A DNA stretch of 64,000 nucleotides. Origin: Patescibacteria group bacterium (lineage in GTDB: Bacteria > Patescibacteriota > Patescibacteriia > UBA9934 > GWF2-40-263). Below, piece after piece: positions 20,039 to 56,059 of this stretch (position 1 is the stretch's first letter; every line of letters starts with the position of its first letter). The stretch is taken from assembly GCA_004297215.1 (NCBI GenBank), contig SCUM01000001.1:742716-806715 (forward strand). Reading direction: 5' to 3'. A program made the translations under genes and the position numbers. Below the pieces are notes generated by a model. It saw nothing but the letters and a program-made list of their open reading frames with translations. It had not been told where the DNA came from and ran no database searches.

Positions 20039-20092
20039 ACCCCCTCATGCCTGCCTGCCGGCAGGCAGGCTCCCCCCTTTGATAAGGGGGAG
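20039..20092. repeat. Composite palindromic repeat (inverted orientation) upstream of giant gene 2
   Basis: CCCCCTCATG + CCTGCCTGCCGGCAGGCAGG + CTCCCCCCTTTGATAAGGGGGAG, the reverse-complement arrangement of the copy at 55450-55508. Confidence 0.8.
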
Positions 20093-20106
20093 GTAGCGCA
20101 GCCGTT

Positions 20107-23100: not shown

Positions 23101-26100
23101 GCCAACAACAACGTGGGCATCGCGGATTCCACGCCGGACAACCTGCTCGACATCCTCTCCGGTTCCGACGCCGCCCTCGCGCTTACCTCGACGGGCACGG
23201 ACACGGACCCGCTCATCAAGTTCGAGCTTGCCGACGGCACGCCTACCTTCACCTTGGGCGTGGACGATTCGGATTCGGACAAGTTCAAGATCTCCACCAC
23301 GGCGCTTGGCACGAGCGACCGCCTGGTCATCGACTCGTCCGGCTTCGTGGGCATTGGCACCTCGACGCCGGACGCGGCGTTCGACGTGGAAGCGGCCGTG
23401 GACGCCAACGGGGCGAATGTCCTGTTCGAAGCCAACGACTCGGGGGTGTCCGGCAGCTACTTCCGCATCGCCGACGGCACCGAGGCGGACACGCATTTCG
23501 TCCCCTACATCATGACGAAGGGGATCGGCACCGGGGCGGCGGACCGCGCCGGGCTGATCATCGACGCGCAGCCGGGCGAGGACGGGAGCGACGACGTCGC
23601 GGTGATCGTCGACGCGCATCTTTCCGGCGCGGCGCTCACGAGCGCGCACCTGTTCGAGGTGCGAAACGACGCGACGCCGCTGCTGCGCGTCGCAGCCAAC
23701 GGCAACCTCGTCTCGTTCGGTTCCGTCGGCATCGGGACGGGAACGCCCGGGGCCAGCCTCGACGTGGATCCCGCCAACGTCGTGGGCGGCGGCACCTCCG
23801 AGCAACCCTCGATCCTCGGATCGAACCAGGTGATTGCGCTTGCCGACGGGACGACCCGGGCGAATCAGCGCCAGTTCAAGTTCCTCGCGCCGACCCTGAA
23901 CGGGGTCGCGGGCGGAGGCACCGAAACGGTCACGGACGCGGCCACCTTCTACGTCTCCGACGCCCCGTCGGGTTCGGACATCACCTTCACCAACGGCCCG
24001 TACGCCCTGTGGGTGGATGCCGGGACGGCGCGGTTCGACGGGGACGCCATCGTGGGCGGCAGCACGTCGATCACGGAGACCCTCGCGAACGCCGGATTCT
24101 CGATTGGCGGCGACGACCTGTTCGTGGCCGGCACCGCGGGCGTGGAAGGGAACGTGTACACGGACGGGTCGTTCATCGCGGGCGCCACCCTCACGCTCGC
24201 GGATTCCGGCATCACCGAGAGCGGCGCGTTCACCTTCACCTCCCAGCTCGCCGCCGGCGGCACCACCTCTTCCGCCTACAACCTGGTCACGAGCAACGAC
24301 CTCGGTTCCGCCGACGAAGTGCTCCAGATCGGTGACTCGACAGGCACCTTCGCGACCGTCCTTGGGAACGGCAACGTCGGGATTGGAGAAGTCGACCCGG
24401 CCACGATCCTACACGTTTCCGGCACCCAGGCTCGCGTCACCATCGAGGACACGGGAAAGGGGACGGGGCCGGCCGTGCTTGGGCACGATTCCGGCATGTT
24501 GTTTCTCGAGAACAACGGCATACGCGTCATCTCCATCAACGACTCCGGCGGTTCCACGGGATTCGGCGACCAGAGCCCGAACGCCATCGTGGAAGTCGAC
24601 CAGGCCGGCGGCAGCGTCGACCCATTCCTCATCTCGAGCAACAACGGCGTGGACGGCGACCTGTTCAACGTGCAGGACGGAGGCGCCGTGGGCGTGGGCG
24701 ACGTTTCTCCGGACGCCAGGTTCGACATTGACGACGGCGCCGCGACCGGGACGATCGTGGGGGTGCTCTCGAACGCCGGGACGCAGGCCGGATCCTTGAT
24801 CGGCCTTTCGCTCGACTTCGACTCGTCGCTCGCCGGCGCCGCCAACCTGGACTTCACCGGCGTGAGGCTCCTCACCCCCAATCTCACGCAATCCACCGCG
24901 GATACCACCGACTACCTCGGGTACGACCTGGCGGCTGGCGCCATCACCCAGGACACGCTTGCCGGGACGATCAATTGGACCGGCGCGCGCATCGCCATGC
25001 CCGTGCAGGTGCAGACCACCGGCATCGTGAACACGAGCGGGCTCACGGTCACGGACAACGGGTCGAGCAACAGCGGGGTGAAGCGCGGATTGTTCGTGGA
25101 TTTCAGCGGCATCCAAAGCGGCGGGACCCTGGTGGGCCTTGACGTGGACAGCATCACAACCGGCGGCGGCAACGGGCTTGGCGTGCGCATCGGGTCCGGG
25201 TTCGACACGGATCTCCAGTTTGTGAACGCCGCCGCCGTCATCCGCGTTCCCAACGCGGGCACGCTCGACTTCCAGGACGCCTCGGAGAACTCCCTCATGC
25301 TGCTTACGGACGCGGGAAGCACGAGCACCCTCGACGTGAACGGCTCCATCCGCGCCGGGACGCCTGGCACGGACGGCCAGTTCCGCCTCTACTCCGAGCA
25401 GGGAGCCACGGACTACGAGGTCGCGTTCAACCCGCATGCGGCCATGACGCAGGCCACCGCCTACACCCTTCCGGCGGACGACGGCGGATCCGGCCAATTG
25501 CTCACCACCGACGGGTCCGGCGCGCTCTCTTGGTCAACCGCCGCTTCGGGCGACATCACGGCCGTGGGCTCCATGACCTCCGGCGACGCCTTCGCGGACT
25601 CCACGGCCGACGACGACTGGCTCGGCCTTGGCGCCAGCGCCGGCCGCATCGAGTTCGATGACCAGGCCACGGACGAGGTGAACATCCTCGGCGCGAACGT
25701 CGGCATTGGCACCTCGACGCCTGGTTCAACCATCGACGCCACGTCCCCGGCGACCCTCACCACGGCCTATCAGCTCCTGGCCGATTCGGTGACGGACGGG
25801 ACGGGATTGGAACTGTCCCTCGACAGCCTGAACGAGGGTTACGGCCTGCTCGTAACGAGCACGGCAGATGCGGATTACGGGTCTGACCTGGCCGGATTCC
25901 AGCAGTTCGCCGTGTCCACGGGTACCGCGACCATGGACGGGAACGTGGAGAGGATCGTTCAGAACCTGGACTCCAGTACCACGGGGACCCTCACGGTGAG
26001 CGGCAACGCGATGCGGATCCAGCGCGCGGTGAACGCCAACAGCGGCACGACCCTGGACGCGACGGGCGCGGTCATGCGTATCAGCGACCAGACCGGCGCC

Positions 26101-27555
26101 GGGACAGGGACCCTCAACTCGAGCTCGGACGTGCTTTCCCTCACCCAATTCATCACGACGAACAGCGGCGACGCGTTGGGCATCCTGCACCAGGGCACAG
26201 GCATCGGGGCCCACATCACCATGAGCACCGTGAGCGCCCCCGCATCCGGTTCCGTGGGCAACCAGGCCTTGGTGCTCGACACCAATGAGACGCAGAGCAA
26301 CGACGACATGTTCATCATCCGCTCCGACGCCGACGGCACTCCGGACACGGAGTTCATCTTCGAGGCCGACGGGGATGCCGTGGCCGACGGCAGCTTCACC
26401 GGCGGCGGGGCCGACTACGCCGAGTACTACCGTGTTTCCGACCAAGGGATTGAGGCCGGCGACGTCGTCTGCCTCGACCAGGAGAACCCTGGCGACGTCA
26501 CTCGCTGCTCCGCTTCCGCCCCTGTCCCCACCGGCGTCATCTCCACCAAGCCCGGGTTCCTCGCCAATGGCCAGGGCAGGGACGTGGCGGCCGACCCCTC
26601 GTTCAAGCCGGTCGGCCTGATGGGTCAGGTCCCGACGAAGGTCAGCCTTGAGAACGGCGACATCGCGGTCGGCGACCCCGTCGTCGCTTCCGTGACCGCT
26701 CCGGGACGCGCCATGAAGGCCGTCGAGGCCGGCCAGATCGTCGGCTACGCGCTCGAGCCCCATACCAGCCAGTCTCCTGACGCGGAGATCCTCGTATACG
26801 TGCGCCCTGGATACCACGCGGCACTCTCCTCCCAGACCGCCGCCGGCACCGACAACCGGGCTTCGGAGATCCCGTCCTCGGGCCTCACCGCGCTCAACAT
26901 GAGCGGCAACATCTACATGGCGGGCAACGGAATCCTCGACGTTGGCGCGATTGAGGGCATCGGCGCGCGCTGGTCGGTCGACGCCGATGGGAAATTCGCA
27001 ACCCAGGCTTCCTACGACGTGGTCATCAAGAGCTACCAGGACGAGGACGTGACCGTGCACGCGGTGCTCGGGCGCGAACACAAGGTGACGCTCGACGGCA
27101 CAGCGACCCTCGAGAACGGGGTCGCGACGGTCGCGTTCGAGACGGTCGACCCGCTCTTCAACGACATCACGTCGACGACGGCCGACATCCGCGTGTCCGT
27201 GACCCCCAACGGCCCCGCCTACCTCTATGTCGTCTCGAAGGACCACAACGGGTTCACGGTGCAGCAGTTGAACGGCAGCGACTCGGGCATCACCTTCGAC
27301 TGGTTCGTGAGCGCGTATCGGAAGGACTATGAGCCGGAGGTGATTGAGGTTGTTGAGGTGACGGAGGAGATGCCGGTCGAGGAATCGGTCCCGACCGAAG
27401 GACCCGTGCCGGAACCGGTCGTCGAAGAACCTGCACCTATCCAGGAGACGGCTCCCGTGACCGACCCGGCACCGACCGAGCCTGCTTCGACGGATTCGCC
27501 ACTGGTTGAAGAACCGGCGCCAGAACCGCCCCCGACAGATGAAACCCCGACATAG
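20107..27555 (+). CDS. Giant surface protein 2 (tandem paralog of giant 1)
   Basis: 2482 aa. The first ~135 aa after the TM and a ~1.3-kb internal block are near-identical to giant 1 at DNA level (20237-20610 vs 11617-11990; 21385-22650 vs 12560-13830). One C-terminal conserved module (26400-26780), conserved C-terminal domain, PE-rich tail. Confidence 0.85.
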   Translation: MDLLERKDHPLCRLMQGVVAVALVITGGIASTWVMFEALSVFAVSPPNIISYQGRLLNANGVPDASASRDFQFRLYDSLAAGTCLWSNDDSSCASDADLAVTLTDGLFSENLGDTGAGYAAIPDSVFADDASVFLEVEVEGEVLSPRKQIGAAAYAMNADTLDGINSTSFFVQNGNSLGAAAVLGTNDGFGLELETGGTTRLTLGTSGAITVPLAGSFVFDDDATDGLDDDMTLEVAASLAYPGFDVTVMHPSFGLLELVDPVNSAPGIALHGDLPAYAINVDNPGGAGTAFFPMSFFREGASSSPFFSMQTYPDDDGWAIYGPSVADPGVIQILEAGTVNAGAYAARSDASAIPILCASTRVEETAANLVQESCFMADGSLDLGLALAGTDTTVAQGGIERSSGSDETFAFANQGAGVLSLTADGTVDVSGHAAIGADALIDDGGLLYPGSTFSNTLNVSERSTDASVDYVEGTTNYLLYDPSADASGIWAIALDSEAATEATNAEDVGTLSAGYFNATHNGTGDITSWMSGIEAYVYTTATGGSSISNIGGYFSVTAQDPRATGTEDNYGVWSAVHRTGATGGTINTYGMYVDNDGVDAAGAGTSTLYGLFLESMTGADTNYSIYSAGGQSYHAGNFGIGATTPDADLDIEAAEDTERVRLTDSSNADSVGLYVGDGTAGLDGTLSAQAGSLFLDEDGKLWVNMDGATNWDQVATTAGGGTDLDGVYDNDSDKKMAVDNASGLEFESTTAGNVFVDLQSSGDFVIQSVGTAFATFNDSGNVSFENSLTVGSSSADVVLFNADVDSHFLPDDDDTYDLGADAQRWRDLYLGAATLHVGSLIGDEGTLSYDSTPNDFNFANGGATRMTIQSDGDVGIGDSMTSPTAQLHIKQTAAEDALRVDDEAAGTTYFVVDDGGNVGIGVTSGPSSTLHVVGDTRIGATDYVTMAQDGGGFYVEQIGSSDALRPIRLQSRNAATQYSQFFVDPVNGFQFLINATGANNNVGIADSTPDNLLDILSGSDAALALTSTGTDTDPLIKFELADGTPTFTLGVDDSDSDKFKISTTALGTSDRLVIDSSGFVGIGTSTPDAAFDVEAAVDANGANVLFEANDSGVSGSYFRIADGTEADTHFVPYIMTKGIGTGAADRAGLIIDAQPGEDGSDDVAVIVDAHLSGAALTSAHLFEVRNDATPLLRVAANGNLVSFGSVGIGTGTPGASLDVDPANVVGGGTSEQPSILGSNQVIALADGTTRANQRQFKFLAPTLNGVAGGGTETVTDAATFYVSDAPSGSDITFTNGPYALWVDAGTARFDGDAIVGGSTSITETLANAGFSIGGDDLFVAGTAGVEGNVYTDGSFIAGATLTLADSGITESGAFTFTSQLAAGGTTSSAYNLVTSNDLGSADEVLQIGDSTGTFATVLGNGNVGIGEVDPATILHVSGTQARVTIEDTGKGTGPAVLGHDSGMLFLENNGIRVISINDSGGSTGFGDQSPNAIVEVDQAGGSVDPFLISSNNGVDGDLFNVQDGGAVGVGDVSPDARFDIDDGAATGTIVGVLSNAGTQAGSLIGLSLDFDSSLAGAANLDFTGVRLLTPNLTQSTADTTDYLGYDLAAGAITQDTLAGTINWTGARIAMPVQVQTTGIVNTSGLTVTDNGSSNSGVKRGLFVDFSGIQSGGTLVGLDVDSITTGGGNGLGVRIGSGFDTDLQFVNAAAVIRVPNAGTLDFQDASENSLMLLTDAGSTSTLDVNGSIRAGTPGTDGQFRLYSEQGATDYEVAFNPHAAMTQATAYTLPADDGGSGQLLTTDGSGALSWSTAASGDITAVGSMTSGDAFADSTADDDWLGLGASAGRIEFDDQATDEVNILGANVGIGTSTPGSTIDATSPATLTTAYQLLADSVTDGTGLELSLDSLNEGYGLLVTSTADADYGSDLAGFQQFAVSTGTATMDGNVERIVQNLDSSTTGTLTVSGNAMRIQRAVNANSGTTLDATGAVMRISDQTGAGTGTLNSSSDVLSLTQFITTNSGDALGILHQGTGIGAHITMSTVSAPASGSVGNQALVLDTNETQSNDDMFIIRSDADGTPDTEFIFEADGDAVADGSFTGGGADYAEYYRVSDQGIEAGDVVCLDQENPGDVTRCSASAPVPTGVISTKPGFLANGQGRDVAADPSFKPVGLMGQVPTKVSLENGDIAVGDPVVASVTAPGRAMKAVEAGQIVGYALEPHTSQSPDAEILVYVRPGYHAALSSQTAAGTDNRASEIPSSGLTALNMSGNIYMAGNGILDVGAIEGIGARWSVDADGKFATQASYDVVIKSYQDEDVTVHAVLGREHKVTLDGTATLENGVATVAFETVDPLFNDITSTTADIRVSVTPNGPAYLYVVSKDHNGFTVQQLNGSDSGITFDWFVSAYRKDYEPEVIEVVEVTEEMPVEESVPTEGPVPEPVVEEPAPIQETAPVTDPAPTEPASTDSPLVEEPAPEPPPTDETPT

Positions 27556-30001: not shown

Positions 30002-30077
30002 TGGTGGACCCTAACGGGATCGAACCGTTGACCTCTTCCATGCCATGGAAGCGCTCTACCAGCTGAGCTAAGGGCCC
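30002..30077 (-). tRNA. tRNA-Ala (anticodon GGC)
   Basis: Reverse complement GGGCCCTTAGCTCAGCTGGTAGAGCGCTTCCATGGCATGGAAGAGGTCAACGGTTCGATCCCGTTAGGGTCCACCA. G3:U70, anticodon loop ATGGCAT, CCA encoded. Confidence 0.9.
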
Positions 30078-31294: not shown

Positions 31295-31370
31295 GAAGGC
31301 CTCAGGCCCCAGGCATGAAGGTTACACATGGCGCTCATGTTTTCCTTAGGCCTTTCCGCCTGAGGCCTTC
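31295..31370. terminator. Imperfect long hairpin between convergent ychF and the methyltransferase gene
   Basis: GAAGGCCTCAGGC ... GCCTGAGGCCTTC arms. The motif CATGAAGGCCTCAGGC recurs at 56050-56070. Confidence 0.5.
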
Positions 31371-32313
31371 ATGCCTTGCGCATCACCACGATCTCCCGCG
31401 CCACCTTTTGCCCCTTGCGTTCGTACAGGAACGTCCGTTCGATCGTGAATCCGATCGGAGCAAGGATGGTGTTCAAGGGGAGGCGCAGCTTCTGGGTGCC
31501 GCGCACGAAGGCCGGGAAGGCGATCGCGGCCCGCGCGCCCGGCTTCATCACGGCATGCACGCCGACGAGCATCTTTGCGTAGGACTGGCCCAAAACGGCC
31601 ATGTTTTTTTGGATCGTCTCAAGCGTTTCGCGGCCGGTCATCGGCGGGCCGAGATACGTTTCACCGGCCACGGCGTCGACGGGATCCTTGAGAATCGCCG
31701 CGAGGTCGGCCGCGTCACAAACGTACACCGACACGCGCGAGGCGCGAGCCTCCGGGAATTCCTTGCGCACCCATTCGAGGTTGCGTCCCGTGTCCGCAGT
31801 CGCCTTTTTCGAGATGTCCGAAGCGATGACCGCCTTGAACCCCATCAGCATCGCCTCCATCGGAACCGTCCCGCTCCCGCAGAACGGATCAAGGAGCACA
31901 AGGCTCGCTACCCCTCTCCTCTCGGAGGAGAGGGCATGGGTGAGGTCCGCGCCCGTGCCCGTGGCGAGGTTCACGAGCGTGCGCGCGAGCTTGGGCGGGA
32001 GCATCCCGCTTTTCGCGTCGCGGCTGGGGCGCCCGAAGTCACGTTTCGACCATGCCTCGAAATCCTGGACCGCCTCGGTGCGCCCGACGAGGATCCCGTC
32101 CTTGGTGGCAACGAGTACGATGTCGCCGGCCTTTGCCTGCGTGGTCACTGCCACGCTCGAGAGCGTGTCGCCCTTCATCGTGACGACACGCACCTTGCGT
32201 CCTTCGGCCTCGAGCGTGCGTTTCACGGTCATCCCGATCTTGCTTGCCTCGCCCTTGAGGTTGCCGAACAGGGGAGCGTTGCCGCCGTCATAGAGCGACA
32301 GGCCAAATGTCAT
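31361..32313 (-). CDS. Putative RNA (guanine-N2) methyltransferase, UPF0020/Trm11-RlmL-like
   Basis: Start MTFGLSLYDGG at 32313. Class I MTase motif I LLDPFCGSGT. The N-terminal region is consistent with a THUMP-associated family. The long ORF extension to 33168 runs through a repeat and is rejected. Confidence 0.7.
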
Positions 32314-32320
32314 TTTTTTC

Positions 32321-32410
32321 CCATCGTCATTGCGAGGAAGGAGCGAAGCGACTGACGAAGCAATCTCGTCGCTCGCGGGGGAACGGGATTGCTTCGCTTC
32401 GCTCGCAATG
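32321..32410. repeat. Palindromic element of the CATTGCGAG / GACGAAGCAATC family
   Basis: TCATTGCGAGGAAGGAGCGAAGCGACTGACGAAGCAATCTCGTCGC...GGGATTGCTTCGCTTCGCTCGCAATGA. Related copy at 49915-50040. Confidence 0.7.
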
Positions 32411-32727
32411 ACGGAACCGGCCTTGACGACTCCAGCCAACCTGTTTATTGCCTCTTTCGGACTCGGACCGGACTCGTCGCACACAAGAACCGTCTCCGAT
32501 GTCGCGACGGCCTTCGCGGACGGGTAAATGGCAAAAAATTCCGCCAATGACAGCGCAGGATTCGAGCCAAGGACGTAGAAGCGCATAAGCGTTTCAAAGT
32601 ATAGCAGATGTGGATAACCGGTGCTTGTGTCGTGGAATAGATGTGCATAGGACGACGGTTTGCTTCGGACAGTCCGAGTTACCCACATGGATTGGTATTT
32701 TTTCGCTAAAATGGCGACCAAAATGCT

Positions 32728-32766: not shown

Positions 32767-33426
32767 ATGGTCCGAGCCTTCATTTTTGCCGTAGGCGCTT
32801 GTGTTGGAACCCTGTTGCCCGGGATGGTTCTGGCCCAGTCCACCTCCACCAATTACATCCTGTGGGACACCGCGATCAATGCGGGAGGCGGAAGGACTAC
32901 GTCCACGAATTACATCAATTTCAACACGGTGGTGGACGTGGGGAGCGACCGTCTTTCCAGCACCAACTATCGCGCCTACCAGGGGTTCGAAGCGATCACC
33001 GAGGACCCGCGCATCACCATGAGCCTTACCCCCACAACCATCACCCTCTCGCCCAATCCGCTCACCACCGCGTCGGTGAGCACGGGCACCACCACGGCCA
33101 CCGTGAGCACGAACGCGGACTTCGGCTACACGCTCACGGCCACGGAGAACGACGCGTTCAAAAATCAAAGCGCCGATGAGCTCGCGGACGTCTCCGATGG
33201 CGCCGTCACTGCCGGGAGCGAGGAGTACGGCATCGCGGTGAGCGGTTCCGACGCCGCGTTCGGCGACGACCGCAGCGTTTCCGCGACCCCGCGCACGATC
33301 GCGAGCAAAAGCACCTGGGGAGCCGACCGCGCCACCGTCGTCACCGTGAAGGCCGCGATCGCGAGCGTCACGGACTCGGGGGAGTACTCGGGCACGCTCA
33401 CGTTCATCGCCACGGGGAATTATTGA
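32767..33426 (+). CDS. Secreted subunit-like protein (paralog of 6078), C-terminal ...TFIATGNY
   Basis: Start MVRAFIFAVGACVGTLLPGMVLAQS (signal peptide). The ORF-track start at 32728 lies upstream of the promoter. Three S-T-N-Y repeats, DVSDGAVTAGSEEYG, terminal TLTFIATGNY. Confidence 0.75.
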   Translation: MVRAFIFAVGACVGTLLPGMVLAQSTSTNYILWDTAINAGGGRTTSTNYINFNTVVDVGSDRLSSTNYRAYQGFEAITEDPRITMSLTPTTITLSPNPLTTASVSTGTTTATVSTNADFGYTLTATENDAFKNQSADELADVSDGAVTAGSEEYGIAVSGSDAAFGDDRSVSATPRTIASKSTWGADRATVVTVKAAIASVTDSGEYSGTLTFIATGNY

Positions 33427-33428
33427 AT

Positions 33429-33517
33429 AGTGCGTAGTGCGTAGTTGGTAGTACGTAGGAAAGAAAATCTACGCACTACGAACTACGTACTACGAACTAC
33501 GTACTACGCACTACGCA
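33429..33517. repeat. Hairpin built from ACTACGY heptamer arrays (left flank of the four-helix-bundle gene)
   Basis: AGTGCGTAGTGCGTAGTTGGTAGTACGTAGG..loop..CTACGCACTACGAACTACGTACTACGAACTACGTACTACGCACTACGCA. Confidence 0.8.
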
Positions 33518-33532
33518 AACATATGAACAACG

Positions 33533-33888
33533 AAAAAACGGGTTCGTACCAAGACTTGATCGTGTGGCAGAAGGCCATGGATCTTGTGGTCGGTGTTTAT
33601 GAGATTACAAAAGATTTTCCTACAGATGAGCGGTATGGGATCGTGAGTCAGATGAGACGTTCCGCCGTGTCTATCCCGTCGAACATTGCGGAGGGATATA
33701 GGCGAAAAAGCGAGGTGGATTTTCAAAGATTCCTCCGGATCGCCTATGGCTCAGCGTCTGAACTCGAAACACAGCTCCTCATTGCGCAACGGTTACGATA
33801 CGGGCCAGCAAGCTTTGCCCGAACGGATGCTCTCCTGGAAGAAATTCTGAAAATGTTAAACAAGATGACGGAAGGGAAGAGTTCGTAG
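33533..33888 (+). CDS. Four-helix-bundle protein (23S rRNA intervening-sequence protein family)
   Basis: MNNEKTGSYQDLIVWQKAMDLVVGVYEITKDFPTDERYGIVSQMRRSAVSIPSNIAEGYRRKS..FLRIAYGSASELETQLLIAQRL matches the TIGR02436-type family. The annotated upstream start lies inside the hairpin repeat. Confidence 0.8.
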
Positions 33889-33983
33889 TCCGTAGTCCGT
33901 AGTGCGTAGGAAAAACCTACGACTACGAACTACGGTCTAGGAAACCGGTCTACGTACTACGCACTACGTACTACGCACTCCGC
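33882..33983. repeat. Heptamer-array hairpin (right flank of the four-helix-bundle gene)
   Basis: TCGTAGTCCGTAGTCCGTAGTGCGTAGG..CTACGACTACGAACTACGG, followed by further CTACGTACTACGCACTACGTACTACGCAC units. Confidence 0.8.
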
Positions 33984-36236: not shown

Positions 36237-36257
36237 CTCCTCAGACCCCACCATGCC

Positions 36258-36334
36258 TCCCCTTTCCAAGGGGAGGGTAGCGGAAGCGAGCTATCTCCCC
36301 CTTGGAAAGGGGGAGCATGAGGGGGTCTGCGGCG
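36258..36334. repeat. Cluster of palindromic repeats upstream of giant gene 3
   Basis: CCTCCCCTTTCCAAGGGGAGGG, then CTCCCCCTTGGAAAGGGGGAG + CATGAGGGGGTCTGCGG (parts 1 and 3 of the composite element). Confidence 0.8.
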
Positions 36335-36341: not shown

Positions 36342-39300
36342 GTGAGTTCCCACGTCCGCCCCGTGTCACGAGCGTCTCGTGGCATGAGGCGGGTGGATTC
36401 CACCCGAACTTTGCACGCCCCCATGCTTGTCGTGCAGCCAGACAAATCCCTCATCCGAAGAGTAAGCGCGAGCGAGCCGTTCGCGCTCGTTGTGGTTTTC
36501 CTCATGATGATTTCCGGGTTCAGCGTGTGGATGCTGCTGTCGCGCGCGCCCGGGGCGGTCGCGACGCTCGACACGCCGATGCTCATCACCTATCAGGGGA
36601 AGCTCACCAACGCGAGCCGCATCACGGTGCCGGACTCGGCGCTCAACATGAAGTTCGCGATCTACACCTCGAGCTCCGGCGCCTCCGGCTGCGTGTGGAG
36701 CGCGGGCGACGACCCGGGCGACGGCGCGGACACTACCTTCTCGCAATCAAGCGACTGTCCGAGCCATGTCCCGTCGACCGCGATTTCCGTGACGCCCAGC
36801 GAAGGGGTGGTCACGGTGATCCTCGGCGCCTCCCCGCAAAACGCCATCCCCGATGCGCTGTTCGACGACAACTCCGCCCTGTACCTCGGCGTCACCGTGG
36901 GGGCTGACAGCGAAATGACTCCGAGGATCCGCCTCACCGCCACGCCCTACGCCTTCCAGGCCGGCGACGCGGACCTGCTCGACGGCCTCGATTCCACGGC
37001 GTTCGCCACCACGAGCACCGCGTTCGTGAACAACGGCAATTCCTTCGCCGCCGCCGGGGTGATCGGCACCAACGACGCGAACTCGCTCTCGTTTGAGACG
37101 AACAACGTTACCTATCTCACCATCGCCTCCGGCGGCGGCTTCACGCTTCCCGTGGACACCGACTGGACGCTCACGGGCGGCACGAACGGGTTGAGCCTCG
37201 ACGGCACCACCTTCTCCGTGGACGCCGCCAACAACCGCATCGGCATCGGCACCGCGGCCCCGAGCCAGACCCTCACGGTGGTCGGCACCGGCGACGTGTC
37301 CGGCCACGTGGCCATCGGCGACGACGCCGCGATCAACGACGCGTCGCTCCTCTATGGCGCATCGACCATCACGAACGTCCTTACCGTCTCCGAGGAGATG
37401 ACGGACGGCGCCTCGGACTACGTGGACGGCATCACCAACCACATCCTGTACAACCCGTCCACCGACGCCTCAACCACGTGGGTCGACGGCATGGACACGG
37501 TCGTGGAGACGGCCGCGGCAAACGCGCAGGACATCGACGTGATCGATGCCGGATATTTCGGGACCACCCATAACGGCACGGGCGACATCGTGGGCTGGCT
37601 CAACGGCGTCTCGGGGGTCGTCAGCACGACGGCGACGAGCGGGAGTTCTATTTCGAACAACGCCGGGTATTTCGCGGTCACCGCGATCGACCCCCGCGCC
37701 ACCGGTACCGAGGACAACTACGGCTTGTGGTCGGCCGTGAGCCGCACCGGCGCCACGGGCGGCACCATCAACACCTACGGCGTGTACGTGCAAAGCAACG
37801 GCATGGACGCTGCCGGCGCCGGTACCTCCACCCTCTACGGCCTCTATATAGAGAGCATGACAGGGGCCGACACCAACTACGCCATCTACTCCGCCGGCGG
37901 CCAGAGCTACCACGCGGGGAACTTCGGGATCGGCGACGCCTCTCCCGCCTCCCTCCTCACCGTGGGCTCGGGCGACCTGTTCCAGGTGACCTCCGCGGGG
38001 AGGATCATCACGACCGTGACCCCCACGGCCGACTCGGGGACCACCAACAACGCGGCGTTCGTGATGCTCACCACCCCGGCGGACACCACCGGCACGAACG
38101 TGCACAACGCCCTGCGCGTGGACGGGAACGTGGGCAACGCCACCGGAGGCACCAACACCGTCAATCTCCTCGAGTTCGACGCTCTGACCGGCGACGCCCA
38201 AGTGACCCTGCGCGGCATCGACATCGGCGCGCTCACCGGCACCGCCGCCACGGAGGACGCCATCCTGGTCGGAAGCGGTTGGGACTGCACGTTCAAGGTG
38301 GGCTCCACCTGCGTGATCGATGGCTCCGGCACGCTCGGTTCCAGCGGCAACGCCTTCGTGAACGGGGGCAACTCCTTCGGCGCCAGCGCCATCCTCGGGA
38401 CGAACGACGCCAACTCCCTTTCGTTTGAGACCAACAACACCACCTACCTCACCATCGCCTCCGGCGGAGGATTCACCCTCCCCGTGGACACCGACTGGAC
38501 GCTCACGGGCGGGGAGAACGGGTTCTCCATCGACGGCACCACCTTCTCGGTGGATGGCTCGGCCAACCGCGTGGGCATCGGCGACGCCACCCCCGACGCG
38601 CTGCTCGACGTGGGCGGGGACGCGTTCATCGACAACGACCTCGTGGTGGGTGCCGCGACCTCGACCACCGAGACGCTCGCGAACGCCGGGTTCAGCTTGA
38701 GCAACGACGACCTATTCGTCTCTGACTCCATCGGCGCCGAGGGCAACGTCTACACCGACGGCTCCTTCATCGCGGGTGCCACCCTCACGCTCGCCGACTC
38801 CGGCATCACCGAGTCGGGTGCCTTCACCTTCACCTCGCAGCTCGCCGCGGGCGGCACTACTTCTTCCGCCTTCAACCTTGTCTCGAGCAACGACCTGGGC
38901 GCATCCGACGAGGTGCTCCAGATCGGCGACTCGGCCGCCACCTTCATGACCGTGCTCGGGAACGGCAGCGTGGGGATCGGGACGGTGAGTCCGTCAGTGA
39001 TTTTAGATATCGCGAAAGTGGGTTCGGGAAGTACCGCGGCCCAAGTGACCATTTCCGGGTATGCGAATGACGCTTCCAGCGGGGCATACATGAACTGGCA
39101 AAAATCACGCGGAACGTCCGTCGGTTCTTTGGTCACGACCGATAGCGGAGATTATCTCGGGGTGATGGGATGGGCGGGCGTTACTTCTTCCAACACGAGC
39201 AGTTATGGCGCGAGGATCCTCGTGCAGCAAGATGCCGCGGCATCAGCGACGCAAGTACCCGGCGCCTTCATCATCAGGACGAGCGATGCCAGCGCCGAGT

Positions 39301-42300
39301 CTGAAAGATTGCGCATCACGAGTTCCGGCAACGTCGGCATCGGCGATACCACCCCCGCCTCGCTGTTCACCGTGGGCGACGGAGATGATTTCCAGGTATC
39401 CTCGACCGGTAACCTCACCTCTCCGGCCGACACCACATGGACGATTGGTGGCGGCGTGAACGGCCTCAACTTCGATTCGGACACCCTTTCGATCGACGCT
39501 ACGAACAATTTCGTGGGAATCGGCACGAGCACCCCGGACTATCTCCTCCAGGCCGAGGCCAGCTCCGCGTCCGTTCAAGCCGCCGTGGTCACGAACACGA
39601 ACACGGCCGGCGCAGGGGTGGTCATGGCGCAGGCGGGAAACGTGACGGCGCGCTATGCGGCGTACGGGACGACGGCGGCGATTAACAACTTCGCGTCCGG
39701 CACGGCGGCCTTCTTCGGAAGCGGCGCCGTCACCTCCGTCCAGATGGTCACGCCGGACGTGGCCGCCCCGTTGGCGTTCGGATACAACGATTTCGTCTCC
39801 ACGAGCCGCGAATTCCTCCGCCTGACGGACGGGACGGCCGGCGCCGTGTTCAACGAGGACAGCCTCGACCGGGATTTCCGCGCCGAGACCGACGGGAACG
39901 TCAACGGCATCTTCCTCGACGCTTCCGCCGAGACCATCGACCTGGTGGGCGGCTCGGGCTCCACGGGCTGCTCCATCAGCTCGGCGGGCGCCCTGGTGTG
40001 CACCGCAGGGGTAGGAGGATGGACCGACGGGGGGACCGACGTCACCCTCACCACCTCCACCGACAACGTGGGCATCGGCGGTGCGTCGCTCGGCAAGCTC
40101 TCCGTGGACGGGGATACCGACGAGATCCAGCTCCTGGTGCAGGGAAACTCCAGCCAGACGGCCAACTACATGACGGTGGAGACGAGCGCCGGCACCGACC
40201 TGTTCCAGATTGACACTTCCGGGAACGTCATCCTCACCAACGACCTTGGCGTGGGCGCCGCCGCCTCCTCCGAGACGCTCGCGAACACGGGTTTCTCGCC
40301 GAATGGCGACGACCTGTTCGTGGCGGACTCGATCGGCGCGGAAGGCAACGTCTACACCGACGGCTCCTTCATCGCCGGCGCCACCCTCACGCTCGCGGAC
40401 TCCGGCATCACCGAATCCGGCGCCTTCATTTTCACCTCCCAGCTCGCTTCCGGCGGCACCACCTCCTCCGCCTTCAACCTCGTCTCGAGCAATGACCTGG
40501 GTGCCGCCGACGAGCTCCTGCAGATCGGGGACTCGGCCGGGACGTTCATGACGTTCCTTGGGAACGGCAACGTCGGGATCGGGACCGTAAACCCCTCGGC
40601 CCCGCTCACGGTGGTCGGGGGAGCGGACGTCAATCTCGCCGCGGACGACAACTTCGTCATCGACGGGAGCACCAACCAGCGCACCATCACGCTCGGAGCC
40701 ATGCGCTTCTTGCACACGCCGGCCATCCAGGGGACGCGCGCCATCAACCTGGTGGTGGACGCCAACAACCAGTCCGACACCTCCGGCATCGTGGTGGATT
40801 ACGCCGCCACCAACTTCGACAGCGACCAGAACGGCACGGCGCTCAAGCTCTCGGTGGATTCCACGAGCGCGACCGGCGGGGAAGTGCGGGCGATCGACGT
40901 CACGAAGACGGCCGGCGGCACCCTCGACGTGTACGCGGTGCAAGCCGGGGTGGGCGTGACCCCCCTGCGCCAGGTCTCGGGCACGTTCGGGAACGTGGAC
41001 ACGGCGCTCATCGAGGCCGGCGGATTCACGGCCGTCACGTCGAGCTTCAACTCCACCGGCACCGACGTGCAGATGTTCGTGGCCAACGGCGACCGCGTGT
41101 ACGTGGGCGCGGACACCACCTTCGGCGCCGTCTCCTTCGTGCTCGCCACCGTCGCCTCCGGCGCCGGAGTGAAGCCAACCTTCGAGTTTTCCACGGGCGC
41201 CGGATGGACGAGCTTCGGTCCCAACGACGGGACCAACGGGATGCGCACCAACGGGAGCATCAGTTGGGACGCCGCCGACCTCGCGACCTGGGCCACCCAG
41301 TCCGTGAACGCCACCACCAAGTACTGGATCCGCATCACGCGCACGCAGGCCGCGCTTACCACGCCGCCCACCGAGGACATCGTGCAATACGCGGCCGCGA
41401 CCAATTACACCTGGGACGTGAACGGCGACCTCGCGATCCGCGACCTCGCGGTCAACGGCGGCGACCTCACCACGAGCACTTCCACCTTCAACCTGGCCGC
41501 GTCGGTCACGACGCTCGCGATGGCCGGCGGCTCCGGCTCCACGGGCTGCACGATTGACTCCTCGGGGAACCTGGCGTGTTCCGGCACGGTGTCAGGGAGC
41601 GGAGCCGTCGGGTTCGTGAACGGGGGCAACTCCTTCGGCGCCAGCGCCATCCTCGGGACGAACGACGCGAACTCGCTCTCGTTTGAGACCAATAACACCA
41701 CCTACCTCACCATCGCCTCCGGCGGCGGGTTCACGCTTCCCGTGGACACCGACTGGACCCTCACGGGCGGCACGAACGGGTTGAGCTTCGACGGCACCAC
41801 CTTCTCCGTGGACGCCACCAACAACCGCATCGGCATCGGCACGGCGGCGCCGACGACGGAGCTTGATATTGTCGGTTCGGGGACCGGCTACAACTTCAAC
41901 GCGATCCGCAGCACGAACGGCAACATCGGCTATTTCTCCCAGAACGACACGGCCGGCACCGCCGCGACATCGCGCATGTGGTTGATTGCTGACGGGGTTT
42001 CGGGCAACAGCGTGCAAGGGAATCTCTGGGCGCTCTCCTCCTCCTATACGGATGCCTTCTGGGGAAGCTACGCGGCGGGCAAGGTCTTGCTTGCGGCTGC
42101 TGGTGAGGCGAGTCGGAAGGACCTGTTGATCGCGGCGGTCGGTTCCGGGACTGGCGGCAAGATCGCATTCCATGTCGGTGGATTGAACGAGGCGCCGTTA
42201 GCCGCCAACGAACGGGCGCAAATCGGCGCGACTGAGTTCGTCGTCAACGACAGCTCCAATAATTACGACTTCCGCGTGGAGGGCGACACCAACGCCAACC

Positions 42301-45300
42301 TCCTGTTCCTCGACGCATCCGCCGACCGCGTTGGCATCGGAGATGCCACCCCCGACCATTTCGTGGACATCGAGGCTGGTTCGCTCGCGAGCGCCGTGAA
42401 CGCGCTTTCCGTGACCGGCACGCTCTCTTCGACGGCCGCGGCCCAGACGGGCGTCTCGGTAGACATCACGGGAGCCGGTAGCGACTCGAATCTCCATGCC
42501 GGCTTGGCAGTCAATCTGGGAGCCGGATATACGGGGGCCGGAGCCTCGGCGGCGATGTATTACACGAACTATTCCGCGGGTACGGCAACCACGCCTGTCG
42601 GGAACGGGAACGGGAATTACGGCGTGTCAGGTTTCGCCTTGGGAACGACGACCGGGACGAACGTCAGCGTGCTCGGTTCCGCAGGCTACGGCGACGTCAA
42701 CTACGGCGTCATGGGGAAGGCCCAGGTCGCCAAGACGAGCGCGAAGAACGTCGCGGTCGCCGGCGTGGCGAATGCCGCCGGCGGTTCCGGCATGACGCTC
42801 CTCGGCGGGTATTTCGGCATCAATTCGACCGCCGGAGACCCGACGCTCGCAAGCGCCGCCCTCATCGCGGACAACGGCGACGTCTCCGCCCCCATCTTCC
42901 TCGCCCGCGACAACGGCACGGTCGTGCTCACGGTCGCCGATGGCGGCTCCGTCGGCATCGGCGACAGCACGCCTGCCTCATTGTTCACCGTGGGCGACGG
43001 GGACGACTTCCAGGTGGGCTCCGACGGCGATCTCGACAGCATCAAGAGCGTCGCGTATTCCTGGCCCTCGGCAAACGCCTCGGGCGTGCTCACCAACAAC
43101 GGCTCCGGCGTCCTTTCCTGGTCCTCGGCCGGCTCCGGCGACATCACGGCGGTCGGCTCCATGACCTCGGGCGACGCCTTTGCCGACGCCACGGCCGACG
43201 ACGACTGGCTGGGCCTCGGCGCCGCGGCCGGCCGCATCGAGTTCGATGACGTGACGAACGACGAGGTGAACGTGCTCGACGCGTACCTCGGCGTCGGCAC
43301 GTCCACTCCGGCCGGGATCTTCCACGTGTCGGCGGCCGACCCGCGCACGCGCGTCACGCACACCTCCACCACCGGGTACAGCGTGTTCGACCTCTACGAG
43401 AACGCCACGGCCCAAGGCTCCCTCACCACCTACGGCTCCGCGGTGGGCGGGGCGATGGCGAACGATTTCGTGATCTCGGGCCGCGGCACCTCGGACCTCG
43501 TGTTCGCGAGCGCCGACGATACCGAGCGCATGCGCATCGCCGCCGGCGGCAACGTGGGCGTGGGGGACGCCACTCCGGACGGGTTCTTCTCGGTGGGCAC
43601 CACTTCCCAGCTCCAGGTCACGAGCGCCGGCAACCTTTCCACTTCCGGCACCGTCACCTCCACGAGTTCCTCGGCCTCCGCGCTCGTGGTCGACACCACC
43701 ACGCTCGTGGTGGATGCGAGCGCCAACCGCGTGGGCGTGGGTACCGCCTCGCCCGCCGCCGACCTGCACGTGTCGGCGGCCGATACGCGCATGCGCGTCA
43801 CCCACACGTCGACCACCGGGTACGGACAGCTCGATTTCTACGAGAGCGGCACCGTCCAGGGCGACATCGTGGCGTATGGCTCCGGCGTGGGCGGGGCGCT
43901 TGAGAACGATTTCGTGATCTCGAGCCGCGGCACCTCGGACCTGGTCCTTGCGAGCAGCGCGGACACCGAGCGCCTGCGCATCACCGCCGCCGGCGCGTTC
44001 TCGCTCCCCGCGGACACCGACTGGACCCTCACGGGCGGGGTGAACGGCCTATCCTTCGACGGCACCACCTTCTCGGTGGACGCCACCAACAACCGCATCG
44101 GCATCGGCGACGCCAGCCCGTCCGCGCTGCTCACCGTGGGCGACGGCGACAAGTTCAAGGTCAACGCCGAGGGCGACATCACCTCCGCGTTCACGACCCT
44201 CGACGGTTCGACGACGGCGAACGGCGCGGGTTCCAACTCGACCACGCTCATCCTTACGAGCGCCACGAACTTCGATGTCGGGAATTACGTCCAGGTGGCC
44301 GCGACCGCCTGCGCCGCCAATCCTTGTTTTGCCAAGATCACGGCCATCGTGACCAATACGTTGACCGTCAGCCCTGCCATCTCCTGGAGCGACCTCGACG
44401 TCGTGACCGAGGTCCACGTCCCCGAGATCGGCGGCCTCGACCTCACCCAGGCGCTCGCCAACCGCTACGGCCGCGGCTACTTCATCGACGGCATCGTGGC
44501 CGGCAACGGCTCCACCTACATCACCGACGGCTCGATCGAGAGCGTCGGCGCGCTTCGCATCAACGCCTCCGGCAACCAGGCCGTGACCTTCGGCACCGGC
44601 ACGGTCACGGTCAACGGCCCGCTCGTGACCGCGGCCGGCAACGACCTCAACGTGGACTCCGGCACCCTGTTTGTCGACTCTACCAACAACCGCGTGGGCA
44701 TCGGCACGGCCACCCCCGGCTACCTGCTCGACGTTGCCGGCGCCATGCGCGTGGGCGTGGCCGGCACCGACGGCCAGATCCGCCTGTACTCCGAGCAGGG
44801 GGCCACGGATTACGAGGTGGTGATCAACCCCAACGCCGCCATGACCCAGAACGTCACCTACACCCTCCCGGCCGACGACGGCACTTCAAGCCAGGTGCTC
44901 ACCACCGACGGCTCCGGCGGCTTGAGCTGGGCCACCGCCGGCGGCTCGGGTGCCAACGTCACACTCTCGAACCTCACCACCGTTGCCCTCAACGCCGACC
45001 TGCTTCCGTCCGCGTCGCCGTCCACCTCCTCGAGCAGCAGGACGACCACGGTGGCGGAAACGACCACCTCCACGGGGACGTATTCGGACATGGCGGTTCC
45101 CGCGGATGGGTTGCCGGTCTTAAGTCATACGGACGCATCCGGTTACCTGCGGGTCAGCAAGTGCAGCGACGCCAACTGCTCTTCCGGTTCGATTACCAAC
45201 ACTATCGTGGATTCCAGTTCAACGTTCCAATACACTTCCGTCGCCATTTCCGCCGACGGGTATCCGGTGATCAGCTATTACGACAGCACGAACCTGGATC

Positions 45301-54184: not shown

Positions 54185-54685
54185 ATGTACTCTCTCAACC
54201 GCGCCACCATCCTCGGCAACGTCACGCGCGACCCGGAGCTGCGTCAGACCGGCTCGGGCCAGAGCGTGTGTTCCTTCTCCGTGGCCACCAACCGCAACTG
54301 GACCGACGCCGCGGGCGCCAAGCAGGAGGCGGTCGAGTTCCATAACTGCGTGGCCTGGGCCAAGCTCGCCGAGATCTGCGGCTCCTACCTCGCCAAAGGC
54401 CGCAAGGTGTACGTCGACGGGCGCCTCCAGACCCGCGAGTGGGACGGCCAGGACGGCCAGAAGCGCCGCACCACCGAGATCGTCGTCGAGAACATGATCA
54501 TCCTCGATCGGGCCGGCACGGTCGCCGGGACCCCGGCAGCCGGCTCCGCCGCGCCTGCTGCGAACCGATTCTCCGCCCCGCCGTCTCCGCCTGTCCCCCG
54601 AAGCTTCAGCGAAGGGGGGAAGGCCAAGGACGACCCGGCCCCGAACCCGGACGACGAGATCAAGGTGGAGGATATTCCTTTTTAA
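54185..54685 (+). CDS. ssb: Single-stranded DNA-binding protein
   Basis: MYSLNRATILGNVTRDPELRQTGSG..VAWAKLAEICGSYLAKGRKVYVDGRLQTREW, OB fold. Acidic tail DDEIKVEDIPF. Contains an in-frame repeat insertion (PRSFSEGG). Confidence 0.92.
   Translation: MYSLNRATILGNVTRDPELRQTGSGQSVCSFSVATNRNWTDAAGAKQEAVEFHNCVAWAKLAEICGSYLAKGRKVYVDGRLQTREWDGQDGQKRRTTEIVVENMIILDRAGTVAGTPAAGSAAPAANRFSAPPSPPVPRSFSEGGKAKDDPAPNPDDEIKVEDIPF
54596..54624. repeat. CCGAAGCTTCAGCGAAGGGGGG repeat inserted in frame in the ssb C-terminal tail
   Basis: Same 18-mer as polA 871-888. Encodes PRSFSEGG in both proteins. Confidence 0.7.
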
Positions 54686-54686
54686 A

Positions 54687-54755
54687 GTGCGTAGGTGGTA
54701 GTACGTAGTGCGTAGGATTTATTTTCTACGCACTACTGACTACGCACTACGTACT
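54687..54755. repeat. ACTACGY-heptamer hairpin between ssb and rpsR
   Basis: AGTGCGTAGGTGGTAGTACGTAGTGCGTAGG..loop..TACGCACTACTGACTACGCACTACGTACT, nearly identical to the arm at 33429. Confidence 0.8.
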
Positions 54756-54768
54756 CCTTCATAAAACT

Positions 54769-55009: not shown

Positions 55010-56059
55010 ATGCGCCGCGTCCAGGACATCGCTTCTGAACGACAACGATTGAACGACCTCATCCGGTCGTTCTTTCGGTCTAGGGGCTATGCCGAAGTGG
55101 AAACGCCCACGCTGGTCGCGAGCCCAGACCTCGCGCCGAACTTTACCTATTTCGAGACGACGCTCGTCGCCCCGGGAGAGAAGCCGCGGCAGGGGGCGCT
55201 CATCACGAGCCCCGAGTTTTCCATGAAGAAGCTGCTCGGGCAGGGAATGGAAAAGATCTTCACGCTCGCTCGCGTCTTCCGCAACGACGAGGACCTGGGC
55301 GGCACCCCTTCGACAGGCTCAGGGCAGGTGCACAACCCGGAGTTCACCATGCTTGAGTGGTACAAGCAGGGCGCGGACTATCACGAGATGATGGATGAGA
55401 CGGAAGCGTTGGTGCGCGAGGCTTGCGCGGCGTTCTCAAAGCCAGCTACCTCCCCCTTGGAAAGGGGGGAGCCTGCCTGCCGGCAGGCAGGCATGAGGGG
55501 GTCTGCGGGCGCCTTCAGGCGCCTACGCGTCCGCGACCTGTTGCTCGACACCGCCGGCGTGGATCTCGACACGGCCTCCGCTGCCGACCTCGCCGAGGCC
55601 TGCGACCGGCTCGGCCTGCACCGCGACGCGGCAGACACCGAGAGCGACCTGTTCTACCGCCTGTTCCTCGCGAAAGCGGAACCGTCGATCGGCACGGTCC
55701 CCACGTTCGTCTACGACTATCCGCTCTGCCAGGCGGCGCTTGCGGCAAAGACGGCGGACGGGAAATACGCGCAGCGCGTCGAGCTCTATGTCGACGGGGT
55801 CGAACTCGCGAACGGCTTCACGGAACTCACGGACGCGACCGAACAACGCGCCCGATTCGAGGCGGAACGCGCCGAGCGCGTCGCGTCCGGGAAGAGCGCG
55901 TTCCCCGTTGACGAGGAACTGCTCGCGCTGCTACCATCCGTCCGTTCTCCGACGTACGGCAACGCGCTCGGCATCGACCGGCTGCACATGCTGTGCATCG
56001 GCACCAAGGAAATCGGGGATGTCCTGCTGTTCCCGGCAAGTAAATTATTTAAGGCATGA
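55010..56059 (+). CDS. epmA: EF-P lysine-34 beta-lysyl ligase EpmA (PoxA/GenX, class II LysRS paralog)
   Basis: HNPEFTMLEWY, VELANGFTELTDATEQRARFE, GNALGIDRLHMLC match PoxA. About 350 aa with no anticodon-binding domain. Immediately upstream of efp. Confidence 0.85.
   Translation: MRRVQDIASERQRLNDLIRSFFRSRGYAEVETPTLVASPDLAPNFTYFETTLVAPGEKPRQGALITSPEFSMKKLLGQGMEKIFTLARVFRNDEDLGGTPSTGSGQVHNPEFTMLEWYKQGADYHEMMDETEALVREACAAFSKPATSPLERGEPACRQAGMRGSAGAFRRLRVRDLLLDTAGVDLDTASAADLAEACDRLGLHRDAADTESDLFYRLFLAKAEPSIGTVPTFVYDYPLCQAALAAKTADGKYAQRVELYVDGVELANGFTELTDATEQRARFEAERAERVASGKSAFPVDEELLALLPSVRSPTYGNALGIDRLHMLCIGTKEIGDVLLFPASKLFKA
55450..55508. repeat. Full composite palindromic repeat inserted in frame inside epmA
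   Basis: CTCCCCCTTGGAAAGGGGGGAG + CCTGCCTGCCGGCAGGCAGG + CATGAGGGGGTCTGCGG, encoding ..TSPLERGEPACRQAGMRGSAG... Confidence 0.85.

Follow-up and report, generated by a model that had tools for sequence, protein, structure and literature searches.

Gene-invading palindromic repeats with a putative intrastrand-triplex motif in a Candidate Phyla Radiation bacterium

A family of short, G/C-rich palindromic repeats in the metagenome-assembled genome of a Patescibacteria group bacterium raises the question of what kind of element such repeats are and how they come to lie inside genes. We studied 64 kb of an 842,311-bp contig (SCUM01000001.1), referred to here as the window, to which all coordinates of window loci refer. 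An initial annotation described three modules (M1, M2 and M3) that behave like Rickettsia palindromic elements (RPEs), interrupt polA, ssb and epmA in frame and may double as regulatory hairpins upstream of every giant gene. The alternative considered here is that a single unit with a distinct architecture underlies them. Our analysis bears out a real, dispersed repeat family, with copies in spacers and in-frame copies in protein loops and linkers, and indicates that its core is probably a potential intrastrand-triplex motif of the BoxC/PIT/TM_ECO kind (class II, purine motif).

All of the described modules were recovered. M1-like hairpins occur at 895–915, 11454–11475, 20071–20092, 36256–36276 (a variant), 36295–36315 and 55450–55471; M2, a perfect 20-nt palindrome, occurs at 20050–20069 and 55472–55491 only; and copies of M3 lie at 36316 and 55492 (plus strand) and, in reverse complement, at 11443 and 20039. 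The core GAAGCTTCAGCGAAG of a further small hairpin, M4, is found at 873–887 in polA and at 54600–54614 in ssb. In 100 dinucleotide-preserving shuffles of the window, the three module patterns are essentially absent (expectations of 0.00, 0.00 and 0.02). The modules are not, however, equal building blocks. M1 and M3 form a single unit in which M3 is a G-rich third strand; because M3 mirrors the G-rich arm of the hairpin and covaries with it, it is not a module of its own. The second loop of the unit is where M2 and M4, two distinct small hairpins, are nested.

The core unit (M1 plus M3) is 32–36 nt long, reaching 64 nt with a nested hairpin, and comprises, in order, GYTAY, a C-rich arm, a first loop of 3–5 nt, a G-rich arm, CAT and GAGGGGGT(CTGYGG). 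In the main subfamily, the pyrimidine arm is CTCCCCCTT, the purine arm is AAGGGGGAG, loop 2 is usually CAT and the third strand is GAGGGGGT. GCTAY flanks the hairpin on the 5′ side in all copies except the one in polA, and CTAC, CTAT or TTAC precedes the C-rich arm in most copies, so that GTAG follows the hairpin on the opposite strand. The copies in epmA and upstream of giant gene 2 have an extra, bulged G in the 3′ arm. Loop 2 is enlarged by a nested hairpin in three window units: by M2, between the G-rich arm and CAT, in epmA and at giant gene 2, and by M4 in polA. The outer stems of M4 are CCCACC/GGTGGG in polA and different yet complementary in ssb, around an identical core.

Several lines of evidence point to the triplex architecture. 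Counting G*G.C, A*A.T and T*A.T as compatible triads, we found 8/8 to 9/10 compatible positions between the purine arm and the third strand in 17 of 18 copies, drawn from the window, seven related loci of the Candidate Phyla Radiation (CPR) and one Escherichia coli copy. With shuffled flanks, the mean compatible fraction was 0.59, and 0.88 was reached by 1.5% of shuffles. The third strand changes with the arm: AAGGGGGAG is accompanied by GAGGGGGT, AAGGGGAGG by GGTGGGGT, GAGGAGAGGG by GGGTGAGGT, AAGGAGGGGG by GGGGGTGGT and AAGGGGGGA by AGGGGGGT. Among 14 copies aligned in one orientation, five of the nine stem pairs have double compensatory changes and ten different loops occur. An ITxF-like triplex scan, written after the published TM definition, matched at 11443 (−), 31912 (+), 36245 (−) and 36295 (+) and, when a long loop 2 was allowed, at 854–914 (−) in polA. 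Overall, the window has four perfect units and three with a bulge or long loop, whereas each of 30 Markov shuffles yielded none; a single bulged G is the only reason that the strict scan missed the copies in epmA and at giant gene 2. For the polA hairpin, a third strand is lacking on the plus strand (3/9 triads), whereas on the minus strand it is present with one mismatch. The stretch of polA that had been taken for half of M2 (CCTGCC...) is the complement of the third-strand region of this minus-strand unit.

Class II motifs are ordered as a pyrimidine arm, a loop 1 of 3–6 nt, a purine arm, a loop 2 of about 1–6 nt and a reverse-Hoogsteen G-rich strand (PMC4666352). This order is found in the seven window units and in ten units of related loci, and the 17 of 18 copies counted above agree with the definition of a stem of at least 8 triads and at most one mismatch; the units are also over-represented, and their loops are less conserved than their stems, as in TM motifs.

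The main rival to the triplex reading, which we consider unlikely, is that the repeat is a plain mobile element resembling REP sequences or RPEs, the functional unit of which is the hairpin with its flanks (GYTAC and CATGAGGGGGT). An HUH/Y1 transposase (RAYT, of the IS200/IS605 type) would move the folded single strand, and the mirror would be a recognition or cleavage sequence. Such movement leaves no target-site duplication, and none is seen here; compensatory stem changes around a free loop are also a feature of protein-recognized REP hairpins, and the CTAC/GTAG tetranucleotide abuts the foot of the hairpin in most copies. Sequence identity across genomes of 43–65% G+C suggests constraint by a shared trans-acting factor, and the literature offers precedents in REPs, BIME mosaics and RAYTs. 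However, the M3 flank tracks the purine arm in five arm types, which is unexpected for a fixed cleavage site, and no transposase gene was found among the scanned open reading frames of the window, which is a small part of the genome. The polarity also differs, as GTAG stands 3′ of the hairpin here and 5′ in REPs. The triplex and REP-like explanations are not mutually exclusive.

There are seven triplex units in the window (about 1 per 9 kb), and three of their six loci are in frame inside genes, the remainder being spacers. The unit in polA (854–915, minus strand; the gene is on the plus strand) has the hairpin TCCCCCTT-TTC-AAGGGGGA, a stem of 8, a 34-nt loop 2 that holds M4 (867–892, plus strand; CCCACC/GGTGGG around GAAGCTTCAGCGAAG) and the third strand CAGGGGGTC, with one triad mismatch. 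Upstream of giant gene 1 (11443–11483, minus strand), the unit reads AGCTAT followed by CTCCCCCTT-ATCA-AAGGGGGAG-CAT-GAGGGGGTA, with 9/9 triads. The unit 5′ of giant gene 2 (20035–20098, minus strand), with M2 at 20050–20069 in loop 2, also has 9/9 triads; its ends, CGCTACC and GGTAGCG, can pair, and it folds as DNA at −23.1 kcal/mol (z −4.8; all fold energies given here are for Watson–Crick pairing). A unit of a second stem type lies in a methyltransferase gene (31907–31947, plus strand; GCTAC followed by CCCTCTCCTC-TCG-GAGGAGAGGG-CAT-GGGTGAGGTC, 9/10 triads); this copy and the full minus-strand polA unit add to the initial annotation. The epmA unit (55445–55508, plus strand) comprises GCTAC, the hairpin (55450–55471), M2 (55472–55491), CAT and GAGGGGGTC, with 8/9 triads.

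Window units also occur as an inverted pair of two different subtypes. The arrangement M1′+M1+M3 reported at 36258 holds at the level of modules, and we re-read it as a complete, diverged unit at 36239–36281 (minus strand; GCTAC followed by CCTCCCCTT-GGA-AAGGGGAGG-CAT-GGTGGGGTC) inverted to the unit upstream of giant gene 3 at 36290–36332 (plus strand; GCTAT followed by CTCCCCCTT-GGA-AAGGGGGAG-CAT-GAGGGGGTCTGCGG). The diverged unit has two compensatory stem changes, both of which are matched by its third strand, and the pair (36239–36332) folds at −34.8 kcal/mol (z −6.3). Inverted unit pairs, comparable to the "palindromic TM" pairs of E. coli, were also observed in relatives, in the EpmA loop of one locus (L184, 615–695) and in a spacer of another (L185, 6562–6645).

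How the units came to lie inside genes is clearest for epmA, which encodes a class II tRNA-synthetase-like EpmA/GenX protein (55010–56059 by Pfam; the protein is identical to TAK04266.1). Its two closest orthologs (77% and 74% identity) have AAFGRELPAFRR where the window has AAFSKPATSPLERGEPACRQAGMRGSAGAFRR, a net gain of 60 nt, with no target-site duplication at the filled site compared with the empty sites. The unit is read in frame as ...ATSPLERGEPACRQAGMRGSAG.... We consider the in-frame insertion in epmA, as the initial annotation had claimed it, to be well supported by these sequence comparisons. In an AlphaFold2 model of moderate quality (mean per-residue confidence, pLDDT, of 67.8; predicted template modelling score, pTM, of 0.70), residues 92–108 and 147–166 are predicted as coil with pLDDT below 50, between conserved secondary-structure elements; the first of these segments is missing from the Salmonella GenX structure (3g1z) in the alignment. 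These residues correspond to two insertions, the other of which is a 24-nt in-frame segment at 55305–55330 (CCCTTCGACAGGCTCAGGGCAGGTG, encoding PSTGSGQV) in the GG^HNPEF loop. This 24-nt segment bears no relation to the unit, is missing from the nearest orthologs, occurs once in the window and is not a hairpin; the peptides STSLGSS, STGSGSS and PSTSLGMT at either EpmA loop of other CPR orthologs resemble it.

The EpmA loop contains insertions in many genomes. Among 120 CPR EpmA orthologs, approximately 35 have some insertion at the same loop and approximately 12 have one at the other loop, with peptides typical of several repeat families. In DNA encoding this loop we found triplex units of different subtypes in four related loci (L004, L183, L184, as the inverted pair, and L185), whose starts lie 0–14 nt past a conserved Phe codon and whose reading frames differ. 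The differing offsets and frames therefore favour repeated independent insertions, followed by selection, over one ancestral insertion.

The remaining genic copies vary in how firmly insertion can be argued. In the methyltransferase gene (31369–32586, minus strand; UPF0020-type by Pfam), the unit is antisense and in frame, read as ...GADLTHALSSERRGVAS..., immediately before the LLDPFCGSGT motif; the ortholog in L004 lacks 11 amino acids there, and an in-frame insertion is supported. The same gene contains a palindrome of about 90 nt at 32323–32412 (CGTCATTGCGAGCGAAGCGAAGCAATC ... GATTGCTTCG ... CTCGCAATGACG, read as VIASEAKQSRSPASDEIASSVASLLPRNDD; DNA fold −32.9 kcal/mol, z −4.8), apparently a third type of structured repeat within a gene. 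In ssb (54185–54685 by Pfam), M4 occurs alone at 54596–54620 (plus strand; CCCCC, GAAGCTTCAGCGAAG and GGGGG(G)) and encodes PRSFSEGG in a disordered linker. Two orthologs (L001 and L003) do not have the RSFSEGG stretch; the linker is variable and the M4 fold there is weak (z −1.05). In polA (29–2623 by Pfam, cut by the window edge; the protein is identical to TAK04244.1), the unit is read in frame as ...PLPAHRSFSEGGSSPLKRG... in a variable linker between the 5′-nuclease and exo-like domains; most homologs are about 20 amino acids shorter than the window protein in that linker. The frame is thus intact in polA, ssb and epmA, as annotated. Empty orthologous sites give good support to an insertion for epmA; for ssb it is plausible, and for polA it is plausible and not proven because the nearest homolog is only 62% identical. 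Linkers after the 5′-nuclease domain of other Uhrbacteria PolA homologs (P0132, P0150, P0159, P0165, P0168, P0179, P0181, P0182 and P0184) hold different repeat-like peptides (VILSAAKDL..., GSRRLQPA...RLKPAAT... and LDANHPHPLLKKEG), which suggests that the PolA linker is another recurrent landing site.

Both orientations of the unit occur in coding DNA. That all coding copies are in frame is as expected from survivorship, since direct reading of the sequence shows no stop codon in five of the six frames of the unit. A quite different explanation, that the coding segments represent ancestral protein sequence, or else a motif selected at the protein level (for example, SPLxKGE..GV), draws on the recurrence of PLPEGE..GV and SPLxKGG..GG at the same loop of EpmA across many CPR orthologs. 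We regard it as highly improbable, given that the closest orthologs lack the segment, that the same DNA unit occurs in spacers, that it occurs in both orientations, and that genes read it in different frames (SPLERGE, LPLPEGELEGV, ADPLMLPLGKGEL and DLTHALSSERRGV). The EpmA insertion offsets vary by 0–14 nt, and the segments are predicted as low-confidence coil. The ancestral-sequence alternative, in which the same peptides would occur without the palindromic DNA, is thus largely refuted by the frame and orientation data.

To place the family beyond the window, we considered copies in public data. A gapped pattern (GGGGGAGN{0,20}CATGAGGGGGT) searched against contigs of public genomes gave three true copies among the listed matches, which were mostly chance, and all three were from Uhrbacteria, the Candidatus Uhrbacteria being the nearest relatives of the window genome. 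All true copies of the unit recovered from public data belong to CPR genomes, and relatives have most of their copies in frame inside genes. They include antisense, in-frame copies in a GT4 glycosyltransferase gene (L029/L130; Uhrbacteria RIFCSPHIGHO2_01_FULL_63_20) and in tgt (L128, from a genome of 42.7% G+C), an in-frame copy in pth (L111), a unit in a 343-amino-acid reading frame (L129) and two spacer copies (L090). Across genomes of 43–65% G+C, loop 1 differs, whereas there is almost no variation in the stem, loop 2 or third strand. The unit was not found in viral contigs or GenBank phages.

The nested hairpins have distributions of their own. The exact M2 20-mer occurs in 35 IMG/VR loci (L131–L165), on contigs of 38–68% G+C and in up to six copies per contig, where we would expect fewer than one by chance (using our own estimate of the collection size). 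Short direct repeats often flank it (for example, TCTCGTCTCTCGCT on both sides in L139), and in some cases it lies in the loop of another hairpin. In one locus (L155, 2239–2330), M2 forms the long variable arm of a tRNA-Met gene that is still called by ARAGORN (92 nt). No tRNA was called by ARAGORN in a similar tRNA-Met-like context in L132 (at approximately 8616) or in L162 (at approximately 515), in which M2 lies inside the D-arm-like sequence TAGCTCAGTTGGTA^GAGCG. The M4 core occurs in 14 IMG/VR loci (L166–L179) at the apex of hairpins, the outer stems of which vary yet stay complementary. As both occur on their own, M2 and M4 are independent, widespread small hairpin modules.

These observations allow a more speculative proposal, which we hold to be rather doubtful: that the triplex unit, M2 and M4 make up a nested system of selfish DNA, new copies of which would land preferentially in the single-stranded loops of already folded DNA. 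Landing sites would include loop 2, the loops of other hairpins and, in IMG/VR sequences, the variable-loop and D-loop positions of tRNAs; after selection, the survivors would sit in protein loops. If true, such a system would be a lineage-wide and continuing source of new protein surface loops in gene-dense CPR genomes, with the permissive loop of EpmA hit independently many times by several repeat families.

Spacer copies bear on the proposed role in regulation. Each of the three giant genes in the window (11489–19933, 2814 amino acids; 20107–27555, 2482 amino acids; and 36342–49241, 4299 amino acids, with its start at 36342 or later) has a unit copy upstream, as the initial annotation had noted, and we place these copies 13–90 nt before the genes. 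The units of genes 1 and 2 scarcely differ, even in the loop, despite divergence of the spacer around them, which could reflect conversion, constraint or later insertion. These two features, together with a GGAGG in the G-rich arm, favour the view that spacer copies are cis-regulatory hairpins in the 5′ untranslated regions of giant surface-protein genes, which would hide the GGAG-rich ribosome-binding region, or are stabilizers of mRNA, the coding copies being incidental. We find this improbable. The giant genes are paralogs with stretches of 67–93% identity (families D7, D8 and D17), families of internal repeats and a conserved anchor domain at the N terminus, and the shared position of the upstream units is explained by the shared ancestry of these paralogs. 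At the corresponding place in the operon, flanked by genes for an fn3/CarboxypepD_reg protein and a TPR protein, relatives have a single gene of about 1000 amino acids or more; the family was therefore duplicated and expanded in the window lineage. No unit occurs upstream of the homologous large gene in three relatives with the same conserved operon (L180, L181 and L182), and the intact unit of gene 3 is oriented differently from those of genes 1 and 2. Scans of the three giant-gene spacers found no sigma-70-like promoter or intrinsic terminator, GGAGG lies about 13 nt from the ATG, and E. coli PIT elements have no promoter or terminator activity (PMC4666352). The copies upstream of the giant genes are thus real, and the regulatory function ascribed to them is not upheld.

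The window itself has a G+C content of 64.7% and is approximately 93% coding in a gene map based on GC3, and the gene order rpsF-ssb-rpsR-epmA-efp is kept in relatives. We rejected an assembly artefact as the source of the repeats, as reading frames and synteny are intact and the unit also occurs in independent assemblies. An Rfam scan of the window at the gathering threshold returned tRNAs alone (three genes, at 5262–5333, 5438–5510 and 30005–30077), and the unit matches no Rfam family; in permissive mode, there were only generic hairpin matches to miRNA precursors, far under threshold. Spacers contain other palindromes (3606–3707, 33420–33518, 33879–33979, 54686–54764 and 31343–31377/56051–56085), which are built from short oligomer repeats (GTAGTGCGTAGT..., AAGGACCAAAGGAC... 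and AAGGCATGAAGGCC...), have a G+C content below that of the genome and are common to several spacers.

A mechanism consistent with the triplex reading can be outlined. In single-stranded DNA, the two arms would form a 9-bp hairpin, and the third strand could then lie on the purine arm via the triads counted above; both structures are proposed here for the living cell. Purine-motif triplexes do not form in RNA (PMC4666352), so any role of the triplex would be confined to DNA; in mRNA, the hairpin by itself could still act. That the family occurs at scattered, non-orthologous sites across Uhrbacteria genomes of 43–65% G+C implies repeated copying. Polymerase stalling followed by template switching or gap repair could create and delete copies; alternatively, a structure-specific trans-acting enzyme is a candidate for copying the units. 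In a genome that is about 93% coding, the survivors would be spacer copies and in-frame, stop-free copies in surface loops or disordered linkers, at sites such as those in EpmA, the methyltransferase, PolA and SSB and, in relatives, in Pth, Tgt and a glycosyltransferase. The inserted units would add peptide loops rich in Pro, Gly, Glu and Arg, presumably as neutral passengers.

Several points weigh against this interpretation. Triplex formation in these repeats is deduced from their sequence, and in E. coli the structure forms in isolated single strands but was detected neither in double-stranded DNA nor in vivo (PMC4666352). A mirror repeat beside a hairpin might also serve in recognition by a protein. 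No copying mechanism is known for BoxC, and none was found here. The polA and ssb cases are variable regions without close orthologs, and an ancient gain in the EpmA loop with repeated precise loss may also fit. The exact subfamily is rare in public data, with four metagenome matches, and 64 kb of the 842-kb contig were examined, so that any copy number for the genome is an extrapolation. Two further points concern the E. coli family. The main stem CTCCCCCTT/AAGGGGGAG with CAT as loop 2 does not fit the TM_ECO consensus, CCCTCNCCC N3-6 GGGNGAGGG N3 GGGNGAGGG (Holder et al. 2015, PMC4666352), and TM_ECO is "always located intergenically" (23 copies per 4.6 Mb in MG1655; PMC4666352), whereas window copies also lie in frame inside essential genes.

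BoxC/PIT repeats have so far been known as strictly intergenic (Proteobacteria and Cyanobacteria), whereas RPEs are in-frame inserters; the locus links the two, with triplex-motif repeats inside essential genes (those for EpmA, Pth, Tgt, PolA and the methyltransferase) of ultra-small CPR bacteria and with a single protein loop that was probably invaded again and again, independently, across the radiation. We found no account of such repeats in the literature on CPR bacteria together with palindromic or in-frame repeats. If general, the phenomenon would account for many odd Pro/Gly-rich insertions in CPR proteins and would call for caution among annotators and structure predictors over repeat-derived loops. 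It would also provide a natural system in which to ask how repeats are copied and whether non-B DNA shapes protein evolution, because it offers filled as well as empty sites, along with nested hairpins and inverted pairs.

With respect to known families, the resemblance to RPEs that was first proposed holds for behaviour and not for family membership. RPEs are A/T-rich. As here, they are dispersed, structured repeats with spacer copies and in-frame genic copies in a small, gene-dense genome, and orthologs without the insertion exist; they occupy permissive parts of proteins, as the units of the window may also do. According to Ogata et al. (2000, as summarized in PMC3184786), RPEs measure approximately 105–146 bp and are restricted to Rickettsia; by that description, the units studied here, which are 32–64 nt long, G/C-rich, built on a triplex motif and found in a different phylum, are set apart. 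By size and composition, the repeat is not a member of the RPE family, and no relationship in sequence would be expected. It also differs from miniature inverted-repeat transposable elements in having no target-site duplication at epmA and in being shorter than is typical of them (usually 50–500 bp). With REPs and BIMEs it shares short, G/C-rich hairpins (21–23 nt here, within the 20–40 bp of REP palindromes), a foot tetranucleotide, mosaics, alternating orientation and the absence of target-site duplications; unlike it, REPs are extragenic, number in the hundreds, have no mirror third strand and are tied to a RAYT gene.

The closest likeness is to the BoxC/PIT/TM repeats, for which earlier work (Bachellier; Hoyne & Maher) is cited in PMC4666352. 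The order and sizes of the parts agree (a C-rich arm of 8–10 nt, a loop of 3–6 nt, a G-rich arm, a loop 2 of about 3 nt and a G-rich mirror strand), and both are G/C-rich, multi-copy far above shuffles and arranged in part as inverted pairs, with stems more conserved than loops and no tie to gene function, promoters or terminators. In TM_ECO, likewise, stems are more conserved than loops and inverted pairs are frequent (5 of 23 E. coli copies), and E. coli PIT elements are linked to polymerase arrest and local instability (PMC4666352). The methyltransferase unit shares 84% identity with an E. coli copy from the mtlA–mtlD spacer; that copy adjoins REP sequences and occurs in 4024 of 5426 genomes of the species. 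Only the methyltransferase copy in the window (CCCTCTCCTC...) comes close to the TM_ECO consensus. Because the main subfamily departs from that consensus, the repeat is of the same kind as TM_ECO but belongs to a different sequence family. It differs further in its host, a CPR bacterium where TM_ECO is reported from Proteobacteria, in its density of about 1 per 9 kb in the window against the E. coli figure given above, and in the nested hairpins M2 and M4 in loop 2. On the sequence evidence, the description that fits the feature best is that of a gene-invading variant, in CPR bacteria, of the BoxC/PIT kind of triplex-motif repeat, with an RPE-like effect on proteins.

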